64,000 nt of DNA, from the IMG/VR virus record IMGVR_UViG_3300011442_000009, positions 11,331 to 75,330 of that record; one strand, 5' to 3'. The translations under genes and the position numbers were made by a program. Positions 12,293 to 37,000 of the stretch are shown here, one piece after another; position 1 is the first letter of the stretch; every line of letters begins with the position of its first letter. This DNA comes from a virus (taxonomy: Duplodnaviria > Caudoviricetes). Below the pieces are notes generated by a model. The model saw only the letters and a program-made list of their open reading frames with translations. It was not told the origin of the DNA and searched no databases.

Positions 12293-14454
12293 AAATATTC
12301 ACACTCAAGAATCTTACGGACCGCGCCGGTGCATTCGACCGGGTTCCGTGGGATTTTAAATTTGCGTCAGAGACAATCTCCGCGGAGGTGCGCAAGAATA
12401 AAGTAAAGCGGCAGGCGTGGTGCACAGACCCCTCAGTCGAGCATTGTTTCTACTCCGCGTTTATCGGCGTCGCTGAGAGCGGGCGCGTGAACAAGGAGAA
12501 CCCTCCGAAGCTCCTGTGGCTCTTCGTCGCGGACTACGACTGCGTGATTTCCGACGAGCGGATGAAGGAGGCAATCGAGCAGATGCCCATCAAGCCGACG
12601 TATATTGAAACCTCCATCGGAGGCAATCGCCGGTTGATTTGGGTTCTGGAAGAACCGATTTTGCTAGGCTCGAATGAGTTTGCGACTTTCCTCCTGCAGA
12701 AGGCTGAGACTTGGCTCCGGCTCAATCAGCTCCCCATGCTCGACCAACCGGCTTTCATCACCACTACCCGGCTGTTCTGCTGCGGTGACAAGTGGGAGCC
12801 CACCGGCTACGGCCCGGTGCCGCTCGCGAAGTCGCAAACATTTTTCTGCGACTGTGGGAAAGAGTATCGTTTCAGAAGTTACGATGAGATTTTGATTCCG
12901 CTGGACGTCGCTGCAGCAGAATTCGCGAAAAAGTATCCGGAGACTTTCTCGAAATGGCCCGGGGAATTCGTATTGGGAAGCCAAGGTCCCAGCTTCTGGG
13001 TGCCCGGCTCGGAGTCCGCTGGCTCTGCAATCGTAAAGACTGAGGGTATCTTCACGTTCGCAGCACACGCAGAGAAGGCGTTCTTTACTTGGGGTGACCT
13101 TCTCGGACAAGACTTCGTTAAACAATATCGCGACACCGCCATCGCCCGGGCCTCTCACGACATCTGGTGGGACAACCTGAAATTCCACCGCAAAATCGAT
13201 GGGGAGTATGTGTCGATGACGAAGGAAATTTTCGTGAACTATCTCCGGGTAGACTGCGGCCTCTCCGAGAAAGCGGACTCCTCCGGCACATCACCTATCG
13301 CCCAGACCATCCAGCACATCTACAATCACCAGAGGGTCGCCGGGGCAGCTCCGCACGTTCCGCTTCCTACCGGCATTATTTATTCTCAGGGAAAGCGCTG
13401 CTTGAACACTTACACCGGGCGCGTGGTGGAGCCCGCGACGGGAGTGCACCACTGGGGAGATCTGGGAATGTTCCCGTGGATCTCCAGAATGATCGACACA
13501 CTTTTATACCCAAAGCTGCAGAAAGAGTATCTGTTGGCGTGGTATAAGTACTACTATCAGGGCATGCGAAAAAAGCTATGCCGTCCCGGACAGATTCTGA
13601 TTATCCAAGGTCAGGCCGGTTGCGGAAAGTCACTGCTCAGTCGTGAGATCATCGGCCGGTCCGTCGGCGGGTTCTGCGATCCTTCCTCTTTCGTGCTTAA
13701 CGGCAGCAATTTCAACTCAGAGCTTTTCGAGATTCCGCACTGGGCGCTGGACGACGATGCCCCTAGCGCAAGTCAGCACGCCGCCGGAGGAGCTCACGCA
13801 ACGATGAAGAAACTCGTGGCGAATGACTTCTTCATGTATAGCAAGAAATACGAAGTCCCCAGCATGGTTCAGCGTGGCGGTCGGCTGATTGCTACGATTA
13901 ATCCCGACGTGATTAGCCTCAAGTTGATTCCCAGTCTGGACGATGGAATGCACCAAAAGTTTTCGCTGTTCCGTTGCGCAGACTTCGGTCCCGAAAAAGA
14001 CAACTTCACGTTCCCCATGGACCGCGAGGAGATCCAACGCATCATCGAAAGAGAGCTCCCGTATTTTCTGGCATGGCTCGAGGCGTGGGAAGTGCCGGAC
14101 CATATTTCCCGCGGCGACGGCCGCTTCGGTTTCGCAGCCTACCACGATCCCTCCATGGCAGAAACCTCTAAGCAAGCCGGTTCTGCTGCGCCGTTCAAAG
14201 AGATTTTGCTGGAGACCCTGATAGAGCACTTCCGGCAAAATCCGGAGGATACGACTTGGACAGGATCCTCCAACCGGGTCATGCACCTTTTGGAAAACGA
14301 TATCAGAAACCAGCTCGCGCTCCGCTCTTACAAACCCGAAAAAATCAATTCCAATCTCGAAACACTGTCGAAGGAAAATTTCCTCGGCCTAACAACCTCC
14401 TCAGATCCCAGCACCGGCATCCGCCTCTGGACCTTTAAAAAACCCACCGCATGA
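12289..14454 (+). CDS. Primase-helicase (AEP-like N-terminus plus D5/SF3-like helicase)
   Basis: VADYD and ETSIGGNxRLIW primase-like motifs; Walker A GQAGCGKS; FNSEL...DD; KKY/K motif. Confidence 0.85.
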   Translation: MKIFTLKNLTDRAGAFDRVPWDFKFASETISAEVRKNKVKRQAWCTDPSVEHCFYSAFIGVAESGRVNKENPPKLLWLFVADYDCVISDERMKEAIEQMPIKPTYIETSIGGNRRLIWVLEEPILLGSNEFATFLLQKAETWLRLNQLPMLDQPAFITTTRLFCCGDKWEPTGYGPVPLAKSQTFFCDCGKEYRFRSYDEILIPLDVAAAEFAKKYPETFSKWPGEFVLGSQGPSFWVPGSESAGSAIVKTEGIFTFAAHAEKAFFTWGDLLGQDFVKQYRDTAIARASHDIWWDNLKFHRKIDGEYVSMTKEIFVNYLRVDCGLSEKADSSGTSPIAQTIQHIYNHQRVAGAAPHVPLPTGIIYSQGKRCLNTYTGRVVEPATGVHHWGDLGMFPWISRMIDTLLYPKLQKEYLLAWYKYYYQGMRKKLCRPGQILIIQGQAGCGKSLLSREIIGRSVGGFCDPSSFVLNGSNFNSELFEIPHWALDDDAPSASQHAAGGAHATMKKLVANDFFMYSKKYEVPSMVQRGGRLIATINPDVISLKLIPSLDDGMHQKFSLFRCADFGPEKDNFTFPMDREEIQRIIERELPYFLAWLEAWEVPDHISRGDGRFGFAAYHDPSMAETSKQAGSAAPFKEILLETLIEHFRQNPEDTTWTGSSNRVMHLLENDIRNQLALRSYKPEKINSNLETLSKENFLGLTTSSDPSTGIRLWTFKKPTA

Positions 14455-15131
14455 GCACCATCTTTGACCAATTAGATTCCCGCGGTTTGACACAAAAAGA
14501 GACCGACATCGCCTCGCGCAAGGTCCGGTTCGGGAAACCGGCGGAGCGCGCGGAGGGCATCGAGTTTTTAGTCGTGCGCTCCCTCCGAGAGTCCGTGCTG
14601 CTCCTGCGCAAAATGAGCAAGGGGCGTCTGGATGACGGAGAGCTCATCAGCATCGCGTACAAAGCGCTCGAGAGATCTGCGCGCTCCTACAATCCCAGCA
14701 AGGGCAAGCGCTTTTTCTACTTCTCGAAAAAGGCCCTCCGAGGAGTCCTGATCGAACACTTCCGGGGCAACGAGGTAGTGAAGCACGCCGAAAAGCCTGC
14801 GGCGTCTTGGGAGGAGGCCGTATCCACTTCCCGGCCGCGGAAGAGCCATCCGGATCTCGAGGATCCGGAGACCACGAGCGAGCTCGAGGGCCGGAGCGAC
14901 GCAGACTTCTCGACGATCTATCAGAAGGAAGATTTCGAACAGGTGACGCGGGCAATGAAGTGTTTAAACCACTTCGAAAAAGCCATTGTGCTTTTCATCC
15001 GCGCTACTGGCTACTCCTTCCGGGAGACCGCCGAAGAATTCGGTTGCTCTCGCGCGTGGGTCGGACTTTGCTATAACCGGGCCATCGAAAAATTACGTGC
15101 CGTTTTGGTCCCGGGGCGCGATAGTATTTAG
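14451..15131 (+). CDS. RNA polymerase sigma-70 family factor (alternative sigma)
   Basis: Region 2-like AYKALERSARSYNPSKGKRFFYF; region 4 HTH YSFRETAEEFGCSRAWV...RAIEKLR. Confidence 0.8.
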   Translation: MSTIFDQLDSRGLTQKETDIASRKVRFGKPAERAEGIEFLVVRSLRESVLLLRKMSKGRLDDGELISIAYKALERSARSYNPSKGKRFFYFSKKALRGVLIEHFRGNEVVKHAEKPAASWEEAVSTSRPRKSHPDLEDPETTSELEGRSDADFSTIYQKEDFEQVTRAMKCLNHFEKAIVLFIRATGYSFRETAEEFGCSRAWVGLCYNRAIEKLRAVLVPGRDSI

Positions 15132-20476: not shown

Positions 20477-20616
20477 TGCGAGGCGGGTCTACAGGAGAGA
20501 CCCGCCGGTGCCCGCGTGGGATGTTTATCATCCGTTTACGGCCCACGCAGCCGCTTGTTGTGGCAAGGGTCATTAGCCCGGTGTCCCCGGCTCAGTCCGG
20601 GGTGACCCGCCTCGCA
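20477..20616 (+). ncRNA. Putative structured non-coding RNA (about 140 nt), family unknown
   Basis: Perfect 13-bp closing stem (20477-20489 with 20604-20616) enclosing four hairpins; T-run follows; strand inferred. Confidence 0.5.
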
Positions 20617-20623
20617 CCTTTTT

Positions 20624-20660
20624 CTAAATAAAGAACCCGGCCACTTGGCCGGGTTTTTCC
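20624..20660. terminator. Bidirectional terminator at the junction of the two arms
   Basis: Stem aacccggcc/ggccgggtt with an A-rich 5' side and T-run 3' side. Confidence 0.8.
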
Positions 20661-21438: not shown

Positions 21439-21566
21439 GGCCGAACAAGCGGCTTTTCATCTTCCTCGAGGATCTTGTCCACTTCATCCCAAAAGGAATC
21501 CCTGTGGACGTCATCGCTCGCCAGCCGGGCAAGACGAGTCAATTCAACTTTTTCGCTATCTTTCAT
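21420..21566 (-). CDS. Small acidic protein (48 aa; not in ORF track)
   Basis: MKDSEKVELTRLARLASDD...; ATGA overlap with the stop of the giant gene. Confidence 0.5.
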   Translation of the reverse strand: MKDSEKVELTRLARLASDDVHRDSFWDEVDKILEEDEKPLVRPREERD

Positions 21567-24500
21567 TTTTCGGGTCTCTTCGTTATTTTGTCGGCAAGGC
21601 GTTCTGCGATGCCTTCTCGAATCATACCAGCTTTTTTGAGCTCAGTCAAGTAGGATCCGAGATCCAACCGGCTCCAGTTACGGTCGGCCCAAAGCTTCTT
21701 CTCGGCAAACCAGAGACCACCTTGGAGTGCGTCCGGGAGCACGCCCAGCTGCTCAGCGGCGTCCGCAAAAGCTTTCTGTGAAAAGAAAAAGTCTGGGTCA
21801 GTCACGGCGGCTTCGTTGCCCGGCAGAATCCGCCAGCGGTCCTGAAAACCCTCGTATCCCAACCGGCGCATGGTGCGCTGAGCCCAGACGTCAATCGTCG
21901 CGCCGTGTCCGGTTCCCACGAGGTTCTGGATGAAGTTCGAGACCTTCGGGCCTTCGACGTTCTGGAGCCAAGCGCGCGCCAAAACTTTCAACACGTGTGT
22001 CGAGTGCATCCCGTAAAGTTTGTCATTGCTCTTGCGGGGCTGGAGATCGTGCTCCTTGATCCACTGCGCCATAAAGGCGGGCTCAGTGGCTGCGCGCTTG
22101 CCTTTCACTTTCTTCGCGGCGAGCTGTTCGTCGTACCAAGTTTTCCAGCTACCATCCTCGAGCATCCGGGAGCCTTCCAGAAATTTCTGGATCTTCTCGT
22201 CGAACTGACCGGCCTTGAAGCCTTCGAGGGCCTCCATCGCGAGCTGGAAATTCTCCAGAGGTTTATTCCGAGGACTCGTCGCCGCGAGTAGCTCAGCAAA
22301 TATCTGAGCGTGCTCACCGAATTCCGCATTCAGCTTCGGCACGAAGTCGGAGTACCATTTGAGACCCTCCTTAAACGCATCTGAGTCGAAGTATTGCTTT
22401 GCAAATTCCACGAGCTTATCCGAAAACGCTTTGATCGCGGCTTCCTCGGACCCGGCCTTTTTCGCGAGAGGAGAATTTTTGATGTCGGAGCGTATCACGG
22501 CATCTGCCGTCTTCGGTTCCACGGATTCAGGATACACACGGGCCTTCTGGGCGCGCGTGAGTTGCTTGGTGATTGTGGACGGTAGCGGCTTGCCAGTCTT
22601 GAAGTACTCGGCAGCCTTTTCCTCGGTAGCGGCGTCCGGTATGAGAGGAGGTTCGCCCTTCAAAAGAGGCTTGAGTGCGTCGTGTGCGTCGCGATAGTCA
22701 GTGATCGCGGTCTCGCCGGTGCCGCCAGTTTTTACTTCCTCGCCCAGCACAGGATCCCAGATCGAAACTTGATTGTTTCGCTCCGCGAAGTCGACGGAAT
22801 TTTCACGATGCTTCTGAGAGGGTAACGCATTGACGTCCACGCTAACGCGGTTGCCATCGGGCATAGCGAAAACTCCGAGTGCGGTGCCCTTCTCGTCCAG
22901 AATTCTGCCGTAGTCGCCAAGGGCTTTGATCACGTTCTCGCGTGTGAGCTCCTCCTTCGGGAGGTTGACGCTGGCGAGTGTCACGACGTCCGTAGGAGAC
23001 TTCTTGCTGACGGTCCAGACGGTGCCGTCCTTGTTGAACGTTTGCCCAAAGTTTGCGCCGGTGCGGACCTTCTCGAGCTCCGCATCGAATTCTTTGGACT
23101 TGTAGCCGGGCGTGAACTGAACGCTTGGTTCCCGAGTTACTCGCCGCTTTCCGCCAACGTCCGAGATCACTCCATAGCCGTTTGTTTCGGCAACGTCAGA
23201 GATCGCCTTTTCCTGAGCGGGAGTTAGATCCCCTTTGGAGACGTACAAGTGGTCATCCTCACGGATCACTCGAGCCCAGCCTTTGCTGGTTTCCAAAACT
23301 CGCTGATTCGGATTAGTCTCCCGGGCACTCTCCGGCTGGGCCTCTTTCCCAAGGAGCTCGCGGGCGGTCGTTTCGTGATCTTCCGCGACGGTCTTCCAGT
23401 TGCCGGAGCGATCCAAATAGAACTTGTCTTCCCGCTTGTCGAATTCTCCCGGAGAAAACTGTGCACGGTCCCGGGTCAGAGCCCCGGACGTAGCCTGCGC
23501 GCTCATTTCAGTGGTCTCCTTCGGAGCGGAAATGAGCGGGAGATTGTCCAGTTTCTCGTGCTCGTCGTACGTGAAGAGCTGTACGCCTTCAGACTCCACC
23601 GTGCGTTTAGCTTTGTCGTCAAGCAGATGCACATCCATGTTGTCGATCTTGCCGAGGTTTGTTTTCACAAACTCTTTGATGTGTGGCGCGAGATTCTCCC
23701 AATCCCGCTGGCGCGCCTCGACGGTCAACGTGCCGTTGTTCTTGGAGTAGTTGATCCGGGCAAAACCTTTTTGGAGGGCCTCGAGGCGATTGTCTTCGCC
23801 CTTGCTCTTAACCTTCAAGCCATACTTGCTGATGACGTCGGCGTTCTCGTTCAAGTAGTCGTGGTGCCATTGGTCCCCGAGCTGCGCCATCTTGCCGTCA
23901 GGGAAGAGCCACGCCTTCGAAAAGGTGCCGCGCCCTTCTTTCAGTTTGTAATCGGGTTTTGATTTGCGCTCTTTGCCGCCAGCCATGAATTGGATCCGGG
24001 AGTCCCCGGCGCTGAACGTGCCCCGGTTCTCCACAGCTTTAACTTGGTCACCTCTGAATGCTATGTAATGGTCGGTGTTCGGCGCGAGAGCCATCCCGCG
24101 AAAACGCTTTTCGACGTTCGTCATTTTTATACCGTCGAATCCCATGGCTTCCATCGTCCGGCGAGCCAGTTCGCTACCCATCAGGTGTCCATCATATACG
24201 TCGAGGATCGCCTCGCTGTTCCCAATAGCGTGAATAGCGTCCTCGGCCGTAATTGATTCTCCGTCGAACTTTTCGATAACGTCTTCCCAGACCCTTTGGC
24301 CGTCTACGTCGAGTTTCTCGGCCTCTGCCAAAAGCGCATCATGAAGCTTTATGACCAATCCCGACTCGTTTCCATCTTCGTCGTACTTGAGTTCGAAACG
24401 AGTACCACCCTTCTTATCCATCACGACGGGATTCTCGAGCTTCAGAAAGGCCGATATCACTCGAGGAGACTTCCCCACGAGCTCGGCTCTCGCCTGTTTG

Positions 24501-27500
24501 ACAGCTTCGTCGAGGATCGCGTCGGGGTCTAGATTTAATTCGAACCCAAGCTCCGTTTTTTCGGTAGTCGGGAGCTGTTGCTCGAGCTCATCCGCTCTGC
24601 GACCAATTCGAATCTCTAAATCGGGTCCAACTCCGGCGTAGTTCCGACGGGCGTCGGAAACGTCAGTCGAAAAATAATGACCGGCACCGACCGCATTTTC
24701 GACATTCGCTTTCTCTTTTAAGAATTCGTCAAACTTGTGCGTAGTGCCGTGATACACTTCAATCGGTTGACCCTCTTCGTCAACGACCTTACTGTCGCCA
24801 AACCATTTTTTGAAGTACGGAGAGTCCGTGCCCTTCTCTTTCCAAAGCTTTTTGGCCTCGCGAATTTCTTTCGGCTTTGTCACACCGGCGGATTCGGCCG
24901 GAGAGAATTGCGCATTGGTATAGTGGTTCTCGATGATCCGGTTCTTCGCTTCATCGCTCTTCGCCGATTCGATCTTTCTGAGGAGCTCCTTTGCTTCCGG
25001 ACCGGGGCTCACGAAAATGGTATTGCGGTGCTTGGCGCTGTGCAGAATCATCCCATCTTTGTCGTCTCCGGCATAGCTGCTGATGCGGGTCGTCTCACCC
25101 TCCGCGCCGCGACGTTGCCGGGCCACTTCCTCGTCGTTCATCTTTTTGATGCCTTCGGGGGAGTGCATGAACTGAACCTTCGGCTGGGTACCCAGATCTT
25201 CGGTACCCAAGTCAAAAACTTTCCCGTCCCCAAGTTCTACCGGCTCAGCTTTGCGCACCCATTCGTCGGGTAGCACCAGATCAGTCAGGGGGCGGCCCGC
25301 TTTACGGGATTGGTCTTGCAGCATGTCGAAAACATCCTGCGGCAGCTCGACTTTCATCGTTTTGCCGCCGAAGGTCCGGGCTCGTCCCGGGTTTAAAGTA
25401 AACCAAGAACTGCCGACGCCTTCGGAGCCGCTATAAACCGGAACGGTCCTACTCTCCAATTCTGGAATTTTGAATCCTTTTTTCTCGAGAGTGTTCGAGT
25501 ACGTGGTGCCCTTCGCCGGTGCCACTCCCGGGATATCCTCGAGCGCCGTGATCTGCGCAAACTTGCCTTTGCCGATTGCAGTGAAGTCCTGATAGCCATC
25601 GAAAGTGGCGCGGTACTTTTTGCCGTCCGGTCCAGTTACTGCGATTTCGCGCTTGCCTTCGCCGGGCATGAAACTGACATTGCCCTCTTTGAGGCTATTG
25701 GTTGCCCGGCGCACTGCGCTCATAACATCCAGCCGGGAGCCTGACGGGTCTGCTCCTATCTGTTTTGCTACCTGCTGCAAAAGGTGAGTGGGCAAGGTCT
25801 CGGTAAGAGAGCTCATGTCCGCATTGTTCAGACCGGGAAGAGCGTCTACGAAAGCAGACACCGGCAATGTCCCGTTCTTCATCCGCTCGACTACGCTCTT
25901 CCGCTGTTCTTTCGTGAGAGCGGTATACTTTTCCCCGGGCATGAACCCGGCGGAGAGCGTGAGAGTATTTCCACGGAACTGCGGCACCTCGGGGGCGTGG
26001 TCCGCTTCCAAAATGCGTTCGAGGTTCAGCTTCTGGATTACCTCGATGAAAGAGGGCATCGTCGCACCCGCGGCTTTCGCAGCAGCTTCCATCTGATTGC
26101 GTAGCGGATTGACTTCCAAGATCGGTCGTCCTTCGATACCGAGCTCCTGCGCGCGTTCACCGGTAAAGGTGCCGCGAGGCTCAATCGGCTGCACCAACCG
26201 GCCCGGCATAGTCGCCGCGCTGATGTCCTGTCCTGCGATGTTCAACGGGAACTTTCCGTGACCGAGCTTATTCGTCGCGGGAAGTTTGAAATTGAAGAGC
26301 ATGTTGACGAAGTCCGCTCGATTCTGATCGAGAGCGAGAACTGCATCAGCGCGCACCGGCGGTTTGAAAAATCCACGACCCTGCGTCTCGCTAGGGACTA
26401 CCAACGGCGCACCGGAGCCCGTCGTACCGGACATCTGGTTCTGGACGAACCGCTGAGTGTCTTCATAGAGAGACAGCCAAGCGTCCTTAGTGAAAGAGCC
26501 GGTAGCGGGATCGATTTCGTACGGAGAAAGCTTCGCCATGTCCGGGTTCTTCGCCAGTACTTCCGCCAGCTTCTGTGCATTGGCGGCGAAAACTTCCGGA
26601 GCCCACCCTTGTACTTGGTATTTGCCATCTTTAGTACGTCCGACGGACTCCGGAAAAAAGGTCTTCTCCCAGAGCTTGCGCGCGTCCTCCGGCATGCGCC
26701 GGTAAAGCTCGATCATTTCCCGGCGGGTCTTCCTTTTGGAAGAGATCGCCGCGGCCGGTTCGTCTGGAGCGGAAAGGTAGTTTAACTTCATCCCGGAGCG
26801 TCCTGCAATCGCTTCCGCGGTGATGCCGAGAATTTCACGCTGGGTCTTCGATGCGCCGGGCAAAGCTACGTCAGGGGCCTCCTGTGCGAGCGTGGCGGCG
26901 CTCTGTGCGGACTGTTCTACTTCCTGCTGAGTGCGGGGAAGGCTTGCAGCGCCGCCGGTACGCGCCGGTTGAGCAGGCTGCACGACCGGTTTCTCCGGGG
27001 CGAGCTCACGACCCTGCGCTCCGACCTTTTTCGCGAGATCGAGATTGAGAGGAATTTTCAGACCTTCTGAAACGCGCCCTTCGATAGGATTTTTTCCGAC
27101 GAATTCCATCAGGTGCCCAACGGTACGAGCAAGCACTTCAGGGACCTGATTACCCGGCTTCAGGGTGTTGCCAGTGCGTTTAAACCACGCGTCGAAATTC
27201 TCAGCGGCGATCTCTCGAGCGATGTACCGTTCAGCGGACGCTTTCTGCTCTTCAGGAGTGAGAATCTCTCTCCAGTTGAATTGCACGCCCTGTTGTTCAA
27301 TGCCGTGGTTGACAACCTGTCGGATTTCAGTGTCAGAAGGCGGAGGATTGCCAGCACGACGAGCTTCGTCGTGGTATTGCGTGAGAGCATCCTGAAAAAG
27401 TTTCTCGGCGGCATCCTGACGTCCCCAGCCCGTGTCTTCCAAAATGGTCTGATGCCAGCTCTCGCCCGGCACAACTCCACCGAGTCGATCAGCGTAGTTG

Positions 27501-29431
27501 CTGCCGATCTCGTCCATATTGTGATTCGCGATGATCTCTTGGTCGAGCTCTCGCATGGCATCTTCGCCAAGGACGTTCTCCATCGCGTGCCGTGCCTCAT
27601 GCGGAGCCGCATCGATGCCACTGACTGAGCCAGTCGCCGGTTTGTCGATCAGGATTATAACCTTGCGACCTTTGTGGTCGAAAGCCATTCCGTTTTGCTG
27701 CGCCATTTTTCTGGCAGCGTTAGGAGCAACCCCGGCTTTGAGCAACGCAGCTTCGGCGCTCGGTGCATCTGCTGCGGCGAAGACGTCGATCTTGTTGTCG
27801 ACCCCAGTGGAGAAATCCTGCACGGAATTGATGCGAACTTTCCGTCCGTCAGTGAGGTTCGGGAAAGCCGCCTTATTCATCGCGACAAAAGCGGGATCCG
27901 AAGCGGGGCTCGCCACCCGGGGCTGAGAGTTACCAGCGAACCAACGCGGTGCGATAATCTGACCGCTAACGACGTCACGAAAAGTCTTACCAGCGCCGCC
28001 TGCGAGGCCAAAAGCGACGCCCATACCCAGCCCCTGTCTTTCCTGAGGCGTGTCAGAGGCGGCTGCGAGGCCGATATCAAGAGCTGCGCCGTGCGCGACC
28101 TTCCCGAGAGCCCCGGGAGTGGAGCGGGCGACATCTTTTACGAGTTGCTCATACGAACCCGTGATCTGGTTCTTTACGAGGTTCTCTCCGGCTTGTGTAA
28201 AACCGGTTTTGACTTTCTGGCCAATCTTGTGAAGGTCCGTCGCGATACTCTTGCCAAGTTTGTACCCAGTGGCGGCACCCAAAAAATTGGAGACAATAGG
28301 AATCTCTCCGACTCCCGGTACGGCGTGCGCAACGGCCGCGCCAGATACCGCGCCAACGAGAGGAGCAGTTTTCTCACCAGCTTTAATACCCAGCTCTGCG
28401 GTTTTACCCGTGCCTTGGATTACCCTGCCAGCTACCTTTTGAGCGACGTCCGCCGGGCTCTTAATTTTTGCGGCTAGCGCGGCGACATTTTCGGTTTGCC
28501 CAGCGAGATCAATCGCGCCACGTGTGAGTGCTTTCGCACCGGCTCCCGTGGCGTTCATCCCGGCTCCGAAAAGCAGGAAGGACACTGGTTCTCCGCCAGC
28601 CATAGCGCCAACCTCTTCAGGGCGCACCGGCATACCGGCGGTTTCCAGATTGCGGACATTCTCAGCGGCGATAGGGACGTTCGACAGTATCGGCCCATGG
28701 CCGGACATCGTCTCCTTCTGGATCTGGTGCCGGGAAAGCGCATCAAGAAAATCGGCCTGCTTATCTTCTGGAGTGTAGTCCGCGAGCTGCTTCGTGAGGT
28801 GAGCTCCTCGTGCAAGGGAACCGACGACCTGTCCAGCTTGGTGAATGAGACCCCCCACCCCTGCTTCGGTGGCTGCGATTGCTTCCGCGGCCCGGCGCTG
28901 GGTTTCAAGTTCGTTCTGTGCACGCGTGGCTTCATCGACACCGAAAAGGGGTGCCACTAGACCGGCCGCATGCCCTACGGCGACGCCTGCGACATTACCG
29001 ATCCACTTGCCCGCACCGGCTGCCGTGCTTCCAATCGTACCAGCTACTTGCTTTGCTCCTTCGAGGGTCTTTCCGAGATCTCCCTCGACGATTCCACTGA
29101 CTACCGGGGTGCTCTTGTACCACGGCTGCTGCCGGATCTGATTGTACACGTCCTGTACCTTGGATAGTAGCTCAGGAGTGCGTTGGGCTTGGGGAATGGC
29201 GTCGTACGCGGCAACCACGTCGAAAGAATGATCCTGACCAGCGAGTGCGACGATCTGATCCGGGGTAAAATCCCGGAGGACATCAAAAGCGGGTGCTTGC
29301 TGATTCTCGTCAGGGACGAAAGAAGCGATCTGTTCTGGGGAGAGAGCTACGGGGACTCCCGGCGCTTCAGAGGGCGCGGGAGCGTCAGGAGTAAAACTGG
29401 CAACCTGTTCCGGACTTAGTGTAAGCGGCAT
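21563..29431 (-). CDS. Large polyvalent (probably ejected) virion protein, 2622 aa: HExxH peptidase, ART-like domains, HhH-glycosylase-like C-terminus
   Basis: APHEARH...EIAAE zincin; WFGDSKVVD..G.P..VYHGT...G.GHYF...GFDGI (ART-PolyVal pattern); WY...ATSP...GPKV..F..NL...TID.W; seven xQF(M/S/T)P-type linkers. Confidence 0.85.
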   Translation of the reverse strand: MPLTLSPEQVASFTPDAPAPSEAPGVPVALSPEQIASFVPDENQQAPAFDVLRDFTPDQIVALAGQDHSFDVVAAYDAIPQAQRTPELLSKVQDVYNQIRQQPWYKSTPVVSGIVEGDLGKTLEGAKQVAGTIGSTAAGAGKWIGNVAGVAVGHAAGLVAPLFGVDEATRAQNELETQRRAAEAIAATEAGVGGLIHQAGQVVGSLARGAHLTKQLADYTPEDKQADFLDALSRHQIQKETMSGHGPILSNVPIAAENVRNLETAGMPVRPEEVGAMAGGEPVSFLLFGAGMNATGAGAKALTRGAIDLAGQTENVAALAAKIKSPADVAQKVAGRVIQGTGKTAELGIKAGEKTAPLVGAVSGAAVAHAVPGVGEIPIVSNFLGAATGYKLGKSIATDLHKIGQKVKTGFTQAGENLVKNQITGSYEQLVKDVARSTPGALGKVAHGAALDIGLAAASDTPQERQGLGMGVAFGLAGGAGKTFRDVVSGQIIAPRWFAGNSQPRVASPASDPAFVAMNKAAFPNLTDGRKVRINSVQDFSTGVDNKIDVFAAADAPSAEAALLKAGVAPNAARKMAQQNGMAFDHKGRKVIILIDKPATGSVSGIDAAPHEARHAMENVLGEDAMRELDQEIIANHNMDEIGSNYADRLGGVVPGESWHQTILEDTGWGRQDAAEKLFQDALTQYHDEARRAGNPPPSDTEIRQVVNHGIEQQGVQFNWREILTPEEQKASAERYIAREIAAENFDAWFKRTGNTLKPGNQVPEVLARTVGHLMEFVGKNPIEGRVSEGLKIPLNLDLAKKVGAQGRELAPEKPVVQPAQPARTGGAASLPRTQQEVEQSAQSAATLAQEAPDVALPGASKTQREILGITAEAIAGRSGMKLNYLSAPDEPAAAISSKRKTRREMIELYRRMPEDARKLWEKTFFPESVGRTKDGKYQVQGWAPEVFAANAQKLAEVLAKNPDMAKLSPYEIDPATGSFTKDAWLSLYEDTQRFVQNQMSGTTGSGAPLVVPSETQGRGFFKPPVRADAVLALDQNRADFVNMLFNFKLPATNKLGHGKFPLNIAGQDISAATMPGRLVQPIEPRGTFTGERAQELGIEGRPILEVNPLRNQMEAAAKAAGATMPSFIEVIQKLNLERILEADHAPEVPQFRGNTLTLSAGFMPGEKYTALTKEQRKSVVERMKNGTLPVSAFVDALPGLNNADMSSLTETLPTHLLQQVAKQIGADPSGSRLDVMSAVRRATNSLKEGNVSFMPGEGKREIAVTGPDGKKYRATFDGYQDFTAIGKGKFAQITALEDIPGVAPAKGTTYSNTLEKKGFKIPELESRTVPVYSGSEGVGSSWFTLNPGRARTFGGKTMKVELPQDVFDMLQDQSRKAGRPLTDLVLPDEWVRKAEPVELGDGKVFDLGTEDLGTQPKVQFMHSPEGIKKMNDEEVARQRRGAEGETTRISSYAGDDKDGMILHSAKHRNTIFVSPGPEAKELLRKIESAKSDEAKNRIIENHYTNAQFSPAESAGVTKPKEIREAKKLWKEKGTDSPYFKKWFGDSKVVDEEGQPIEVYHGTTHKFDEFLKEKANVENAVGAGHYFSTDVSDARRNYAGVGPDLEIRIGRRADELEQQLPTTEKTELGFELNLDPDAILDEAVKQARAELVGKSPRVISAFLKLENPVVMDKKGGTRFELKYDEDGNESGLVIKLHDALLAEAEKLDVDGQRVWEDVIEKFDGESITAEDAIHAIGNSEAILDVYDGHLMGSELARRTMEAMGFDGIKMTNVEKRFRGMALAPNTDHYIAFRGDQVKAVENRGTFSAGDSRIQFMAGGKERKSKPDYKLKEGRGTFSKAWLFPDGKMAQLGDQWHHDYLNENADVISKYGLKVKSKGEDNRLEALQKGFARINYSKNNGTLTVEARQRDWENLAPHIKEFVKTNLGKIDNMDVHLLDDKAKRTVESEGVQLFTYDEHEKLDNLPLISAPKETTEMSAQATSGALTRDRAQFSPGEFDKREDKFYLDRSGNWKTVAEDHETTARELLGKEAQPESARETNPNQRVLETSKGWARVIREDDHLYVSKGDLTPAQEKAISDVAETNGYGVISDVGGKRRVTREPSVQFTPGYKSKEFDAELEKVRTGANFGQTFNKDGTVWTVSKKSPTDVVTLASVNLPKEELTRENVIKALGDYGRILDEKGTALGVFAMPDGNRVSVDVNALPSQKHRENSVDFAERNNQVSIWDPVLGEEVKTGGTGETAITDYRDAHDALKPLLKGEPPLIPDAATEEKAAEYFKTGKPLPSTITKQLTRAQKARVYPESVEPKTADAVIRSDIKNSPLAKKAGSEEAAIKAFSDKLVEFAKQYFDSDAFKEGLKWYSDFVPKLNAEFGEHAQIFAELLAATSPRNKPLENFQLAMEALEGFKAGQFDEKIQKFLEGSRMLEDGSWKTWYDEQLAAKKVKGKRAATEPAFMAQWIKEHDLQPRKSNDKLYGMHSTHVLKVLARAWLQNVEGPKVSNFIQNLVGTGHGATIDVWAQRTMRRLGYEGFQDRWRILPGNEAAVTDPDFFFSQKAFADAAEQLGVLPDALQGGLWFAEKKLWADRNWSRLDLGSYLTELKKAGMIREGIAERLADKITKRPEK

Positions 29432-31978: not shown

Positions 31979-32950
31979 TTAGTACACAGGTGCGTCAACC
32001 GGTCCTGCCGCTACCGAAGCGTCAACCGCGGCAGAAGTAGCCGCAGGAGTAGTCGCGGGGGTCGAGCTGAAGATCTTTTTGCCAAGATCAATTGCCTGAT
32101 TCAAATTAACCCCGGCGCTTCCCATCGCATTGGAGAAAATATTTCCCTGAGCGAGGGCGGCGTTCGAAGCCACATTCCCCTGCTGCTGAGTGAGAGAATT
32201 CGCTGCGCCGACACGGGCAAGCCAGATGTTGGCTACGTCCGTACCGGACATGCCAGCATTCGGCATCGCAGACTGTGAGAGATTGAAAACTCCCGCATCA
32301 CGCGCGAGGTTCTGGGACTGCAGCGAGGAAAGATTGGGGAAAAGCGTATTGAGTACGTTCTGGCGTTGTGCCTCGAGGTTCGAAGCGGAGGCCAAAAGGT
32401 TTTCGGCCTGCTGCTGGCGCTGCATCTGCAGATTGAGCCCAGCTTGACCGAGGATCGTACGCAGCATCGTACCGCCGATGCCCTGAGCGCTGGACCGGCC
32501 GGTAACCATGCCGGACTTTTCCAGACCGGCCTGTACCAGCTCCGCTTGTACGTCGGGAGGAAGCGTAGCGCCCTGCTTGAGGTGATCCAAAGCGGCATCG
32601 ATCAAAGCGCTCTTGGCCTCGACGGATTGCCCGGGTGCCATAGCTTCCTTGGCAGCCTGCTCCGCCACCTGTCCGGAAAGCACGCCATTCTTCTGCAGCT
32701 CGTCCAGCATCTGCTGCTGGGAAAGAGCGCGGCCAGCGGCAAGAGCTGGATCCATTTGCTCCTGCAGTGCTCGCTGGTTTTTTGCTCGTGCGATATCAGC
32801 CGCGAGTACCGCGGGCTGCATCGCTTCGGGGTTGAGGTTCTCGAAGAGAAATTTGCGCTGTTCCTTGATCGCACGCATCTGGGCCTGCGTTGCGGCCTTC
32901 TGCGCTTTCGCCTGCGACAATGTACCAATAAATCCGAGATCTACGCTCAT
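31979..32950 (-). CDS. Putative DNA transfer/pilot protein (323 aa)
   Basis: Ala/Gln/Gly-rich helical protein (AQKAATQAQ...) right after the GNAT gene, as in podoviral ejection modules. Confidence 0.6.
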   Translation of the reverse strand: MSVDLGFIGTLSQAKAQKAATQAQMRAIKEQRKFLFENLNPEAMQPAVLAADIARAKNQRALQEQMDPALAAGRALSQQQMLDELQKNGVLSGQVAEQAAKEAMAPGQSVEAKSALIDAALDHLKQGATLPPDVQAELVQAGLEKSGMVTGRSSAQGIGGTMLRTILGQAGLNLQMQRQQQAENLLASASNLEAQRQNVLNTLFPNLSSLQSQNLARDAGVFNLSQSAMPNAGMSGTDVANIWLARVGAANSLTQQQGNVASNAALAQGNIFSNAMGSAGVNLNQAIDLGKKIFSSTPATTPAATSAAVDASVAAGPVDAPVY

Positions 32951-33399
32951 AGGTTTTTCCTAACAATGGTGAATGACTTTCGATAGCCCAGCCGGTCGTA
33001 CATCTGCGCCATCTTATCTGGCGAAAGTTCCATCGAAAAACCGAACTGAACCATCGTGCATCCTGCCGCCTTGCACTCAATCTCGAATGCTTTCAAGAGA
33101 GTCAAAGGCGCTCGAGTGTGCCTCCACTTCGGAGACACTACCCAAACAAACTCATTGCCGTAGAGCTCACCCGTTTGCGGATCCTCTTGAATCGTTCCGA
33201 TCAAGTATCCATGGAGCTCTCCGGCCTTATCAAAATACCCAAAAATTCGAACCCCGGAGGCGTCCCCGAGATCTTTCCAAAAATTCACCATCGGCTCGAC
33301 CCGTACCGGGGGATCCTGCCATTCGATCTCTGGACACTCGACGCCCATCTTTCGAAGGGCGTCCTCAATCTCTTCCGGCGTAACTAATCGGCGAACCAT
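32947..33399 (-). CDS. GNAT-like acetyltransferase
   Basis: GYLIG...EFVWVVSPKWR...LLKAFE..CKAAGC acetyl-CoA-binding pattern; ATG 7 nt after CGACTGT. Confidence 0.7.
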   Translation of the reverse strand: MVRRLVTPEEIEDALRKMGVECPEIEWQDPPVRVEPMVNFWKDLGDASGVRIFGYFDKAGELHGYLIGTIQEDPQTGELYGNEFVWVVSPKWRHTRAPLTLLKAFEIECKAAGCTMVQFGFSMELSPDKMAQMYDRLGYRKSFTIVRKNL

Positions 33400-33406
33400 G
33401 CTCAAC

Positions 33407-33435
33407 ACAGTCGCCGAATCATGTCGGCGGCGCTA
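33407..33435 (-). promoter_or_regulatory. Putative late promoter TAGCGC-N16-CGACTGT
   Basis: Consensus match. Confidence 0.65.
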
Positions 33436-35443: not shown

Positions 35444-37000
35444 TTATGCGTATCCGCCGCCGAAGGCTACACGTAGTGCTTGGATCGCGTTGTAGAATGC
35501 TTGCGCCTCTGCCGCAGAAAGTCCGGTGTGGATCGCAAAAAAGCTGTGTCGAGTGGTGACCACATCGGAAGCAACTCCTCCGCTATTCGTGCTAAAAGCG
35601 TATATTTCCAGAGGAGCGTTCGCGCGAGTGCCTATAGAAGACTGCGTTGTACTGCTGAGCACCGAACTAAACGCCGCGATGGAGCTGGCTCGATATACTG
35701 CCGCGGAAGTCGCGTTAGTTCTATTGCCGCTTATGAAACCGGCCTCCGCGGGCATCCCGCCGATCAACCGTCCTCCTACGGCGTTCCAGCAATCGAAAAT
35801 TACTAGGCTGATGTAGTCCATCGCCAAAATAAAATTGGCGGTTCCGCAGCCGATTTTTTGCTCTGCGGTAGATACGGGTCTGTAGTACGTCAATCCGGCA
35901 GAGTTGTCTCCGGCATAGTCCGAGGCCGGTATGACGCCCGACTTTAAATATTTGGTTCCATCACTGATGAGACCGTTTACCGTGAGATCTCCAGAAAGGA
36001 ATCCCATGTTAGTCCACGGCGTATTCCCGGCGGTCTTAGTGATAGGAGTGATCGCCGCGATCAAATTGTCGGGAGCCATGACCACTACCGAGATCATTTT
36101 CGTATGGATCCCCGCAGAAATGAGCGAAGTCCAGAAAGTGCTAACCGCGGATTTCGATCCGCTGGACGGGGCCGCGCCGCCGTTCGTCACAACCTGATTT
36201 GACCAAGTATACGCGAGGTAATCCCCGGCTGAGAGCACTGTGAGAACCGCAGCGTCGCTCAACACGGAACCGGCGGCATTAGTAACCAAAACGGTATACG
36301 AACCCGTATCTCCCAGCGCGGGGGACGCGAAGGTAAGAGTACTTCCGGTTTCTCCGCCGATATCCACTCCCGCCTTTTTCCATTGGTAGGTAAGCGGGGC
36401 GGTTCCTGTTGCAGTTACTGAGAGAACCGTGGCCGTGCCCACTTCCACCGTCTGGGATTGCGGCTGAACGGTAATCGTCGGAGCGATAATCGCTGGATTT
36501 ACCACTAGCGAGACGGTATCGCTGACAACGGTCCCCGCTTCGTTTGTAATGATAACCCGGTAATCTCCGGAATCGGAAGGAACCGCATTCGAAATAGAAA
36601 ATGAACTTGAAGTCGCTCCGGGGATGTCGACGCCGTTCTTCTGCCACTGGTATGCGAGCGGCGCAGTTCCGGATGCAGTGACTGAGAAAAGTGCCGTTTC
36701 TCCTTCGTCAAGGACTTCCGATTCCGGCTGCCCGGTAACCTCTGGAGAAACCGGGGGCACCGGGGGCTCAATAAACGGAGTCATGTACACGTTATAGCAA
36801 ACCGCTCCGGGGTATTCGTCCCACGTCAGGAACCCATCCTCTGTTATGCGATACTGGACGCACGCGAGAGGATTGACTGGCTCGATTGAGACCGAGGGAG
36901 AGCCGGAACTTGTGGGGACGAATTGCACTCCGCAGATCGGAGGGCACACGTAATGGATCTTCGGACGCCGGGCGTACAAATTGTCAAGTAAGACGTTCAT
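35444..37000 (-). CDS. Virion protein with two Ig I-set-like domains and a C-terminal lectin-like domain (518 aa)
   Basis: Two copies of QPxSxxVxxGxxAxxSVTAxGTAPLxYQWxKxGxDIxG...SDxGxYxVxxTNxAG. Confidence 0.85.
   Translation of the reverse strand: MNVLLDNLYARRPKIHYVCPPICGVQFVPTSSGSPSVSIEPVNPLACVQYRITEDGFLTWDEYPGAVCYNVYMTPFIEPPVPPVSPEVTGQPESEVLDEGETALFSVTASGTAPLAYQWQKNGVDIPGATSSSFSISNAVPSDSGDYRVIITNEAGTVVSDTVSLVVNPAIIAPTITVQPQSQTVEVGTATVLSVTATGTAPLTYQWKKAGVDIGGETGSTLTFASPALGDTGSYTVLVTNAAGSVLSDAAVLTVLSAGDYLAYTWSNQVVTNGGAAPSSGSKSAVSTFWTSLISAGIHTKMISVVVMAPDNLIAAITPITKTAGNTPWTNMGFLSGDLTVNGLISDGTKYLKSGVIPASDYAGDNSAGLTYYRPVSTAEQKIGCGTANFILAMDYISLVIFDCWNAVGGRLIGGMPAEAGFISGNRTNATSAAVYRASSIAAFSSVLSSTTQSSIGTRANAPLEIYAFSTNSGGVASDVVTTRHSFFAIHTGLSAAEAQAFYNAIQALRVAFGGGYA

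Follow-up and report, generated by a model that had tools for sequence, protein, structure and literature searches.

How is a phage protein of 2622 residues organised when much the same short peptide recurs seven times in its C-terminal half, and is the chain cut at these points? The question is raised by a minus-strand gene (21563-29431) in the window analysed here, a stretch of 64,000 nucleotides taken from the IMG/VR virus record IMGVR_UViG_3300011442_000009 (Caudoviricetes; bases 11331-75330 of 75,330 bp). The record is rated as complete. An earlier note, made from the letters of the DNA, had proposed a self-processing polyprotein in which an HExxH peptidase releases modules separated by seven linkers of the type QF(M/S/T)P. 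In the present analysis the linkers were found to be module boundaries, at which modules are gained, lost and reordered. The best-supported reading of the protein is a polyprotein-like array of effectors whose junctions are read by one factor, and the cutter would most plausibly be the zincin-like domain inherited together with them. That the linkers are cleavage sites, at which the protein's own zincin frees the modules as separate effectors, appears to us somewhat probable.

Linkers as boundaries of exchangeable modules

All seven linkers listed in the earlier note were located in the C-terminal half of the protein (Table 1). The pattern F[MST][PAH][GSA] has eight matches in the protein, every one of them in this half, against 0.60 expected, and the maximum reached in 5000 shuffles was four. 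The eighth match, GTFSAG (F1806), was rejected as a linker since it is the conserved C-terminal tail of the ADP-ribosyltransferase (ART) domain. The linkers delimit modules of 91, 167, 88, 306, 177, 114 and 516 residues, in keeping with the discrete units of about 90-500 residues described earlier.

The first ~1165 residues are common to relatives on seven viral contigs and to 132 database proteins (1447-3510 residues long, encoded on contigs of roughly 70-78 kb). Motif and core-end counts were made on 121 relatives. In 121/121 the conserved core ends in ...(F)RGNTLTL(S/T)AGF-x-P, and similarity stops there. The tails that follow carry differing sets of modules, which include ART-PolyVal, DUF7178, His_Phos_1, Radical_SAM, GNAT, methyltransferases and DUF3293. 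QFxP is present 367 times in the tails as against 17 expected from shuffles, and 20 times in the cores as against 17. The family logo reads A-(Q/G)-F-(Q, then S, A, M)-P-(K/R/S), and the residues on either side of it are polar.

Comparison with individual relatives located the points of exchange. The closest one, P0002, lacks three modules present here (residues 1164-1254, 1510-1815 with the ART, and 1993-2106), and the alignment resumes at the linker F after each of them. The differences between this protein and P0002, P0003 and P0004 are insertions or deletions (indels) of whole modules breaking at the linker F, and the order of modules is permuted in P0044, P0055 and P0072. Over 1124 indel events, which are mutually non-independent, 48-59% of the ends lie no more than 10 residues from a linker, compared with 9.5% for random positions, and the median offsets are 0-3 residues. 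When the tails were cut at the linkers, 714 segments were obtained which fall into 166 clusters, with tight lengths within each cluster. The largest cluster, to which module 5 belongs, numbers 117 copies, whose neighbours are of 37 kinds on the left and of 34 kinds on the right. Thus the swaps in relatives do fall at the linkers, a check that the earlier note had called for, and its idea of the linker as a plug-in site fits inter-linker segments that recur in many neighbour contexts.

Tandem linkers 5-9 residues apart, with no module between them, were seen in P0057, P0082, P0117 and P0038; examples are AGLQPRQFQP, AGFRPKETQFRP and AFQPSVQFEP. They may represent empty 'landing pads' or deletion scars.

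One module, as had been claimed, is also a free-standing gene whose start codon corresponds to the linker Met. The product of the early gene at 217-492 is 41% identical to residues 1420-1504, and its start Met aligns with M1422 of VQF-M. Free-standing module-3 genes make up four database clusters (three besides 217-492) of 85-91 residues, all starting with MHSL. The embedded copies have QF-MHS(P/L) at their start (MHSP in this protein), and the free-standing forms end just before the next linker. From these sequences the modules seem to correspond to autonomous proteins, and the module proper would begin right after F because the free-standing module-3 genes begin at the residue after F. None of the other genes of this genome matches a module of any relative. 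The notion that M after F is in general a captured start codon did not survive the comparison: the family consensus is A-Q-F-Q-P-K/R, and M at this position is a trait of the sublineage of the window's protein, where it is seen also at the core end.

Table 1. Features of the giant protein gene and of the free-standing module-3 gene, in window coordinates.
Feature	Coordinates	Strand	Residues	Remarks
Giant polyvalent protein gene (P0001)	21563..29431	-		uninterrupted open reading frame, 2622 residues
N-terminal region	27932..29431	-	1-500	conserved in family; two Gly/Ala-rich hydrophobic stretches
Zincin-like peptidase domain	26996..27925	-	503-812	predicted, AlphaFold2 model and VIA-align
HEARH	27587..27601	-	611-615	zincin motif
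E740-I-A-A-E744	27200..27214	-	740-744	within REIAAE (739-744); candidate third zinc ligand helix
Second core domain	25949..26974	-	820-1161	predicted WYL/Sm-like beta-barrel; ends in invariant ...FRGNTLTLSAG
Linker 1, GFMP (AGFMPG)	25937..25948	-	1162-1165	F codon 25943-25945; core end; pLDDT <50 from residue 1164
Linker 2, SFMP (VSFMPG)	25664..25675	-	1253-1256	F codon 25670-25672
Linker 3, QFMH (VQFMHS)	25163..25174	-	1420-1423	F codon 25169-25171
Linker 4, QFSP (AQFSPA)	24899..24910	-	1508-1511	F codon 24905-24907; pLDDT <50
Linker 5, QFMA (IQFMAG)	23981..23992	-	1814-1817	F codon 23987-23989; pLDDT <50 at 1814-1824
Linker 6, QFSP (AQFSPG)	23450..23461	-	1991-1994	F codon 23456-23458; inside pLDDT <50 segment 1970-2010
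Linker 7, QFTP (VQFTPG)	23108..23119	-	2105-2108	F codon 23114-23116
Module 1	25670..25942	-	1164-1254	missing from closest relative P0002
Module 2	25169..25669	-	1255-1421	directly after core in P0002, P0003, P0004
Module 3	24905..25168	-	1422-1509	paralogue of free-standing gene 217-492
Module 4	23987..24904	-	1510-1815	predicted ADP-ribosyltransferase (ART-PolyVal) with helical insert; PF18760 2.3e-14
Module 5	23456..23986	-	1816-1992	most frequent module in the family (84 proteins, 117 copies)
Module 6	23114..23455	-	1993-2106	missing from P0002
Module 7	21566..23113	-	2107-2622	N-terminal part and DUF7178; in last position throughout the family
Free-standing early gene, 91 residues	217..492	+		module 3 paralogue; start MHSL

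Concerted change of the linkers

The residue after F tends to be the same throughout one protein: the fraction of identical pairs within a protein is 0.40, compared with 0.23 after permutation. Shifts of the linker set were read against the core tree. P0105 carries QFLP five times, as against six QFQP in its sisters P0118 and P0119; the form in P0082 is QF(K/R)P and that in its sister P0092 is QFQP. Further sets are QFKP in P0120, QF(R/K)P in P0117, QFEP in P0034 and QFAP in P0007, and of these P0120, P0034 and P0007 belong to separate clades. In at least five lineages the whole set has shifted independently, and the core-end linker changes together with the tail linkers. A drifting consensus common to all sites of one genome is typical of viral polyprotein cleavage sites. 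Because the variable residue drifts in concert within each protein, the pattern implies that a single, lineage-specific reader would recognise every site of a protein.

A somewhat unlikely explanation is that the chain stays intact, with QFxP as an inter-domain joint (a hinge or docking element for head packing or tail threading) or as microhomology for in-frame cassette exchange with gene conversion. The exchange of modules at the linkers is consistent with this, and so are the 11 identical nucleotides common to linkers 1 and 2 only. At most linkers, however, the codons vary synonymously (CAG/CAA, TTC/TTT etc.), which means that it is not the DNA sequence that is kept. On this account the reading of the linker as nothing but a recombination signal in the DNA was rejected, and selection acts on the linker as a peptide. 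Recombination alone also leaves unexplained the strict conservation of the peptide across proteins that are 35-77% identical, and an inert flexible hinge has no need of an invariant F and P. Functionally, an ART, a radical SAM enzyme or a phosphatase tethered to a core of 1160 residues would make less sense than the same enzymes set free. An uncleaved chain would suit module 5, for which a database search gave almost no free-standing homologues, and it has precedent in those MPTase-bearing polyvalent proteins that are delivered uncleaved (PMC5512222).

In four linkers of this protein ATG directly follows the F codon, which could point to separate synthesis of the modules by the ribosome, either through initiation inside the gene at this ATG or through 2A-like skipping at F-x-P. 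Such an origin is hardly credible, since the family consensus after F is Q and not M, the purine-rich sites upstream of the linkers, as read from the sequence, are inconsistent, and no 2A-like mechanism is known in bacteria.

The core and the candidate cutter

Cleavage by the protein itself would need a peptidase in the conserved part. The zincin motif reported upstream of the linkers was recovered as HEARH and REIAAE. In a 36-sequence alignment H611, E612, H615 and E740 are invariant and E744 is conserved in at least 90%; a few relatives carry HExxxH or HDxxH instead of HExxH. The HExxxH variant of polyvalent-protein peptidases was described by Iyer et al. 2017 (PMC5512222). An AlphaFold2 model of residues 480-1180 (701 residues) was built from this alignment, with a mean predicted local distance difference test score (pLDDT) of 87.8. 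In the model a three-stranded sheet leads into the HExxH helix and then to a later helix with E740. Using VIA-align, the domain matched anthrax lethal factor (LF) 1yqy_A (Z 6.6, root-mean-square deviation 4.7, 166 aligned), PPEP-2 6fpc_A (Z 5.7, 155/185 residues aligned) and PPEP-3 9g0j_A (Z 5.5); collagenase G and LasB were also matched. The top structural matches are consistently zincins and cover the domain, at middling Z (5.5-6.6). The model thus supports a conserved zincin domain of predicted LF/PPEP-like fold in the HExxH region. Foldseek with the 701-residue core model gave no match at E ≤ 0.001. The domain resembles M34 zincins (LF and PPEP; 1yqy, 6fpc, 9g0j), its best structural matches, in having HExxH and a downstream Glu; it differs from them in its larger size with long helical inserts, and sequence similarity to them was not detectable.

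Residues 820-1161 were matched by PafBC (6sj9_B, Z 9.7), BrxR (Z 9.1), CapW (Z 8.9) and DriD (Z 8.1). The WYL-barrel matches (Z 8.0-9.7) align 80-93 residues within this range, and a Pfam WYL match was not obtained. A sensor-like barrel of the ligand-binding, WYL/Sm-like type would therefore sit between the zincin and the first junction, an arrangement in the model which suggests that processing may be regulated. As pLDDT falls below 50 exactly from residue 1164, the ordered part of the core ends with F1163. At the other end of the core, the hydrophobic stretches of the N-terminal region (residues 144-165 and 356-374) possibly serve a membrane or conduit role.

A second AlphaFold2 model, of residues 1490-2010, had a mean pLDDT of 79.9, with values below 50 at residues 1490-1509, 1814-1824 and 1970-2010, which correspond to linkers 4, 5 and 6. 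The domains flanking linkers 1, 4, 5 and 6 are modelled at pLDDT above 90. The junction sites are thus predicted to lie in flexible, exposed linkers.

The gene lies on the same strand as the tail and virion genes and downstream of them. It is the penultimate gene of the late minus-strand transcription unit, because a single further open reading frame follows before the convergent terminator-like hairpins at 20598-20655. These hairpins are strong on both strands and mark the point where the plus-strand (replication) and minus-strand (late) arms meet. By analogy with other large phage proteins, the product is probably made late and carried in the virion.

Taken together, the protein may be viewed in two parts. 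The first (residues 1-1163) would be a core consisting of the hydrophobic N-terminal region, the zincin and the WYL/Sm-like barrel, and ends in ...NTLTLSAG-F. The second would be made up of seven autonomous modules (ART-PolyVal, DUF7178 and five others) on disordered A-Q-F-x-P linkers. The giant protein would be made late, packaged in the virion and injected with the DNA. Its own zincin would be the most likely reader of every linker and would cut the chain at each of them, in the head or after ejection, so that the modules are liberated as separate effectors.

The bond to be cut may be considered from two sides. The module boundary, as judged from the sequences, favours the F|x bond. The P1' position of a zincin cleavage site is usually occupied by a large hydrophobic residue, and for this reason Q|F is favoured by analogy. 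Anthrax LF prefers an aromatic or hydrophobic P1' with a Pro nearby, which is compatible with a cut at Q|F-x-P. Tetanus and botulinum B toxins, for example, are described as cleaving synaptobrevin at Gln76-Phe77 (PMC12845932). A cut at Q|F would also account for the invariance of F and P on either side of a residue that can drift, and by such analogies Q|F appears at least as likely as F|M. Autoproteolysis of the Nup98/ZU5 HFS type was rejected, as the residue after F is usually Q and provides no nucleophile.

In bacteria ClpS-ClpAP recognises an N-terminal Phe as a primary N-degron. In a more elaborate scheme, to which we give a small chance, the zincin cuts at Q|F in every linker, the resulting Phe-starting effectors limit themselves through the N-degron, and the WYL/Sm-like barrel, which ends in the first site, gates the protease until a post-ejection cue arrives, a nucleic acid or another ligand. 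If true, a double-stranded DNA phage would possess an effector cassette system that can be programmed, activates itself and erases itself.

Release by the co-inherited zincin has to be weighed against cutting by another protease, either an unrecognised phage head-maturation enzyme or one of the host, with the zincin serving another purpose, such as action on host targets or on the cell wall. The prohead protease of T4 and of the giant phages trims packaged effectors. A protease could be hidden in this phage as well, for Pfam and PHROGs scans assigned no family to most of its late genes. Head proteases normally also cut capsid or scaffold proteins, however, and the motif-like sites in other virion proteins (679, 518 and 507 residues) are not conserved in relatives, so they were not treated as sites. 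The zincin is the sole protease-like domain that is universally co-inherited, and the core itself ends in the motif. No match to S78 or ClpP head proteases was found in this phage, which speaks against a second protease, within a search that did not extend to other head-protease families. On balance we consider a separate protease unlikely.

Several observations nevertheless weigh against self-cleavage of an injected protein. The fold matches of the zincin domain are middling (Z 5.5-6.6), and a PDB sequence search with the core profile gave no match to this region. The region is also without a match to the Pfam model MPTase-PolyVal (PF18818), which scored nowhere in the genome at E ≤ 10 and was absent from the Pfam scan of the protein at E ≤ 1. 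The virion location is deduced from gene position and analogy. All relatives are metagenomic, with no isolate phage among them. The limited scope of the head-protease search counts on this side too. N4 vRNAP, ArdC and TraC1 possess MPTase domains and yet travel uncleaved (PMC5512222). The concerted change of the linkers could also be explained by gene conversion, or by cassette exchange in which the resident linker is used again. When core columns were compared with linker class by mutual information, the signals were all phylogenetically confounded, the top column being the core-end linker itself. No peptidase residue was found to co-vary convincingly with the variable residue of the linker, and none of complementary charge emerged.

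Modules, neighbouring genes and relation to known systems

In the 2622-residue protein Pfam detected ART-PolyVal (PF18760, 2.3e-14) and DUF7178 (2.3e-08), and PHROGs matched two families, neither of known function. The ART and module 5 are confidently folded in the second model. The ART model has structural matches to PARP, tankyrase, the AcrIF11-like anti-CRISPR ART and NatT (Z 5.5-6.3), and the predicted ART fold of module 4 is thereby confirmed at the level of the model. The best structural match of the ART-module model is chain 9k3a_B of the cyanophage A4 pre-ejectosome (Z 9.0, 165 aligned, 19% identity; structure 9k3a, PMC12002296). This match spans a long, mainly helical range and may mirror the helical insert alone; it was not used as evidence. 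Nucleotide and protein searches of isolate phages yielded no relative of the core; they gave matches to the ART module only, in Tunturi_5, Mx1 and F116, and the ART-bearing proteins of these phages have no regular QFxP linkers.

The segment around linker 5 (residues 1798-1815, 23987-24040), GTFSAGDSRIQF, is the local form of a conserved ART-PolyVal tail, GN-x-GTFDP-x-(N/D)P-x-I-(R/L)-(F/Y)-(S/Q), which is present in more than 100 unrelated polyvalent proteins (P0122-P0269). The next domain or a stop codon often follows this tail immediately. A junction of the form phi-(R/L/Q)-(F/Y)-(S/Q) may thus be more general among polyvalent proteins than the QFxP family.

An N-terminal pattern, W-x-x-P-x-G ... 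H ... G(W/F)-x-R(I/V), is common to modules 5 and 6 and to several modules of the relative L007, and this sequence pattern suggests that a single small fold has been used repeatedly. For module 5 the model gave only weak gelsolin/cofilin-like matches (Z about 5).

Elsewhere in the window, the late unit encodes a 518-residue protein with Ig-like domains (35444-37000, minus strand; Ig_3 1.1e-23; PHROG tail/Hoc-like). A 153-residue open reading frame of the late operon (32947-33408, minus strand) has a weak GNAT match (E 0.0011) and no BLAST similarity at 1e-5 to the GNAT modules of the relatives' giant proteins. On the plus strand, a 226-residue open reading frame (14451-15131) weakly matches sigma-70 region 2 and region 4.

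The protein has at least two unrelated enzyme or effector domains together with a zincin-like domain that carries HExxH and a downstream Glu, and thus belongs to the phage polyvalent proteins, a known class. It resembles those described previously (PMC5512222) as a giant multi-domain phage protein with ART-PolyVal, other enzymes, HExxH...E and a varying architecture. For such proteins autoproteolytic release by the MPTase domain was proposed by Iyer et al. 2017 (PMC5512222), a paper that names no cleavage site or junction motif, whereas here a defined QFxP junction bounds every module. The present protein differs further in that its peptidase has no Pfam MPTase-PolyVal match and its core adds the predicted WYL/Sm-like barrel. 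In the literature searched there was no defined cleavage site for polyvalent proteins, and no description of the QFxP junction motif, its concerted evolution or its cassette behaviour.

The organisation also recalls the polyproteins of RNA viruses (picornavirus 3C and potyvirus NIa sites), which have their own protease in the chain, a short junction consensus in exposed linkers, and a consensus common to the sites of one genome that drifts between lineages. Here the virus is a tailed phage with double-stranded DNA, the modules are accessory effectors that are freely swapped, in place of a fixed set for replication, a zincin stands where those viruses have a chymotrypsin-like enzyme, and cleavage is putative.

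As a large protein encoded by a late gene beside structural genes, it is comparable to T4 Alt, P1 DdrB/DarB, N4 vRNAP and phi24B gp47, which travel in the phage head and enter the host along with the DNA; one of them, T4 Alt, is itself an ART (PMC5512222; bioRxiv 10.64898/2026.04.10.717836). Virions of phi24B contain a polyvalent protein of 2811 residues (bioRxiv 10.64898/2026.04.10.717836). In contrast to the present protein, these are single effectors or uncleaved giants and lack a regular array of junctions. Where packaged effectors of known phages are trimmed, the head protease cuts at few sites, whereas here the motif stands at every junction.

Polyvalent proteins are widespread in phages and plasmids, and the assumption since 2017 has been that their metallopeptidase domains process them. 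The family described here supplies a precise, recurring junction, A-Q-F-x-P, and with it exact candidate cut sites for such processing. The lineage-specific variants of the linker form a natural specificity series, and the modules are clearly delimited. If the linkers are indeed cleaved, a polyprotein strategy would be at work in a tailed phage with double-stranded DNA. There would then be a rule by which giant phage proteins can be split into the effectors that do the work, and the 166 segment clusters could be searched for counter-defence functions. The linker array would also be a natural scaffold into which chosen proteins could be plugged, for delivery together with phage DNA in laboratory systems of phage and bacterium.

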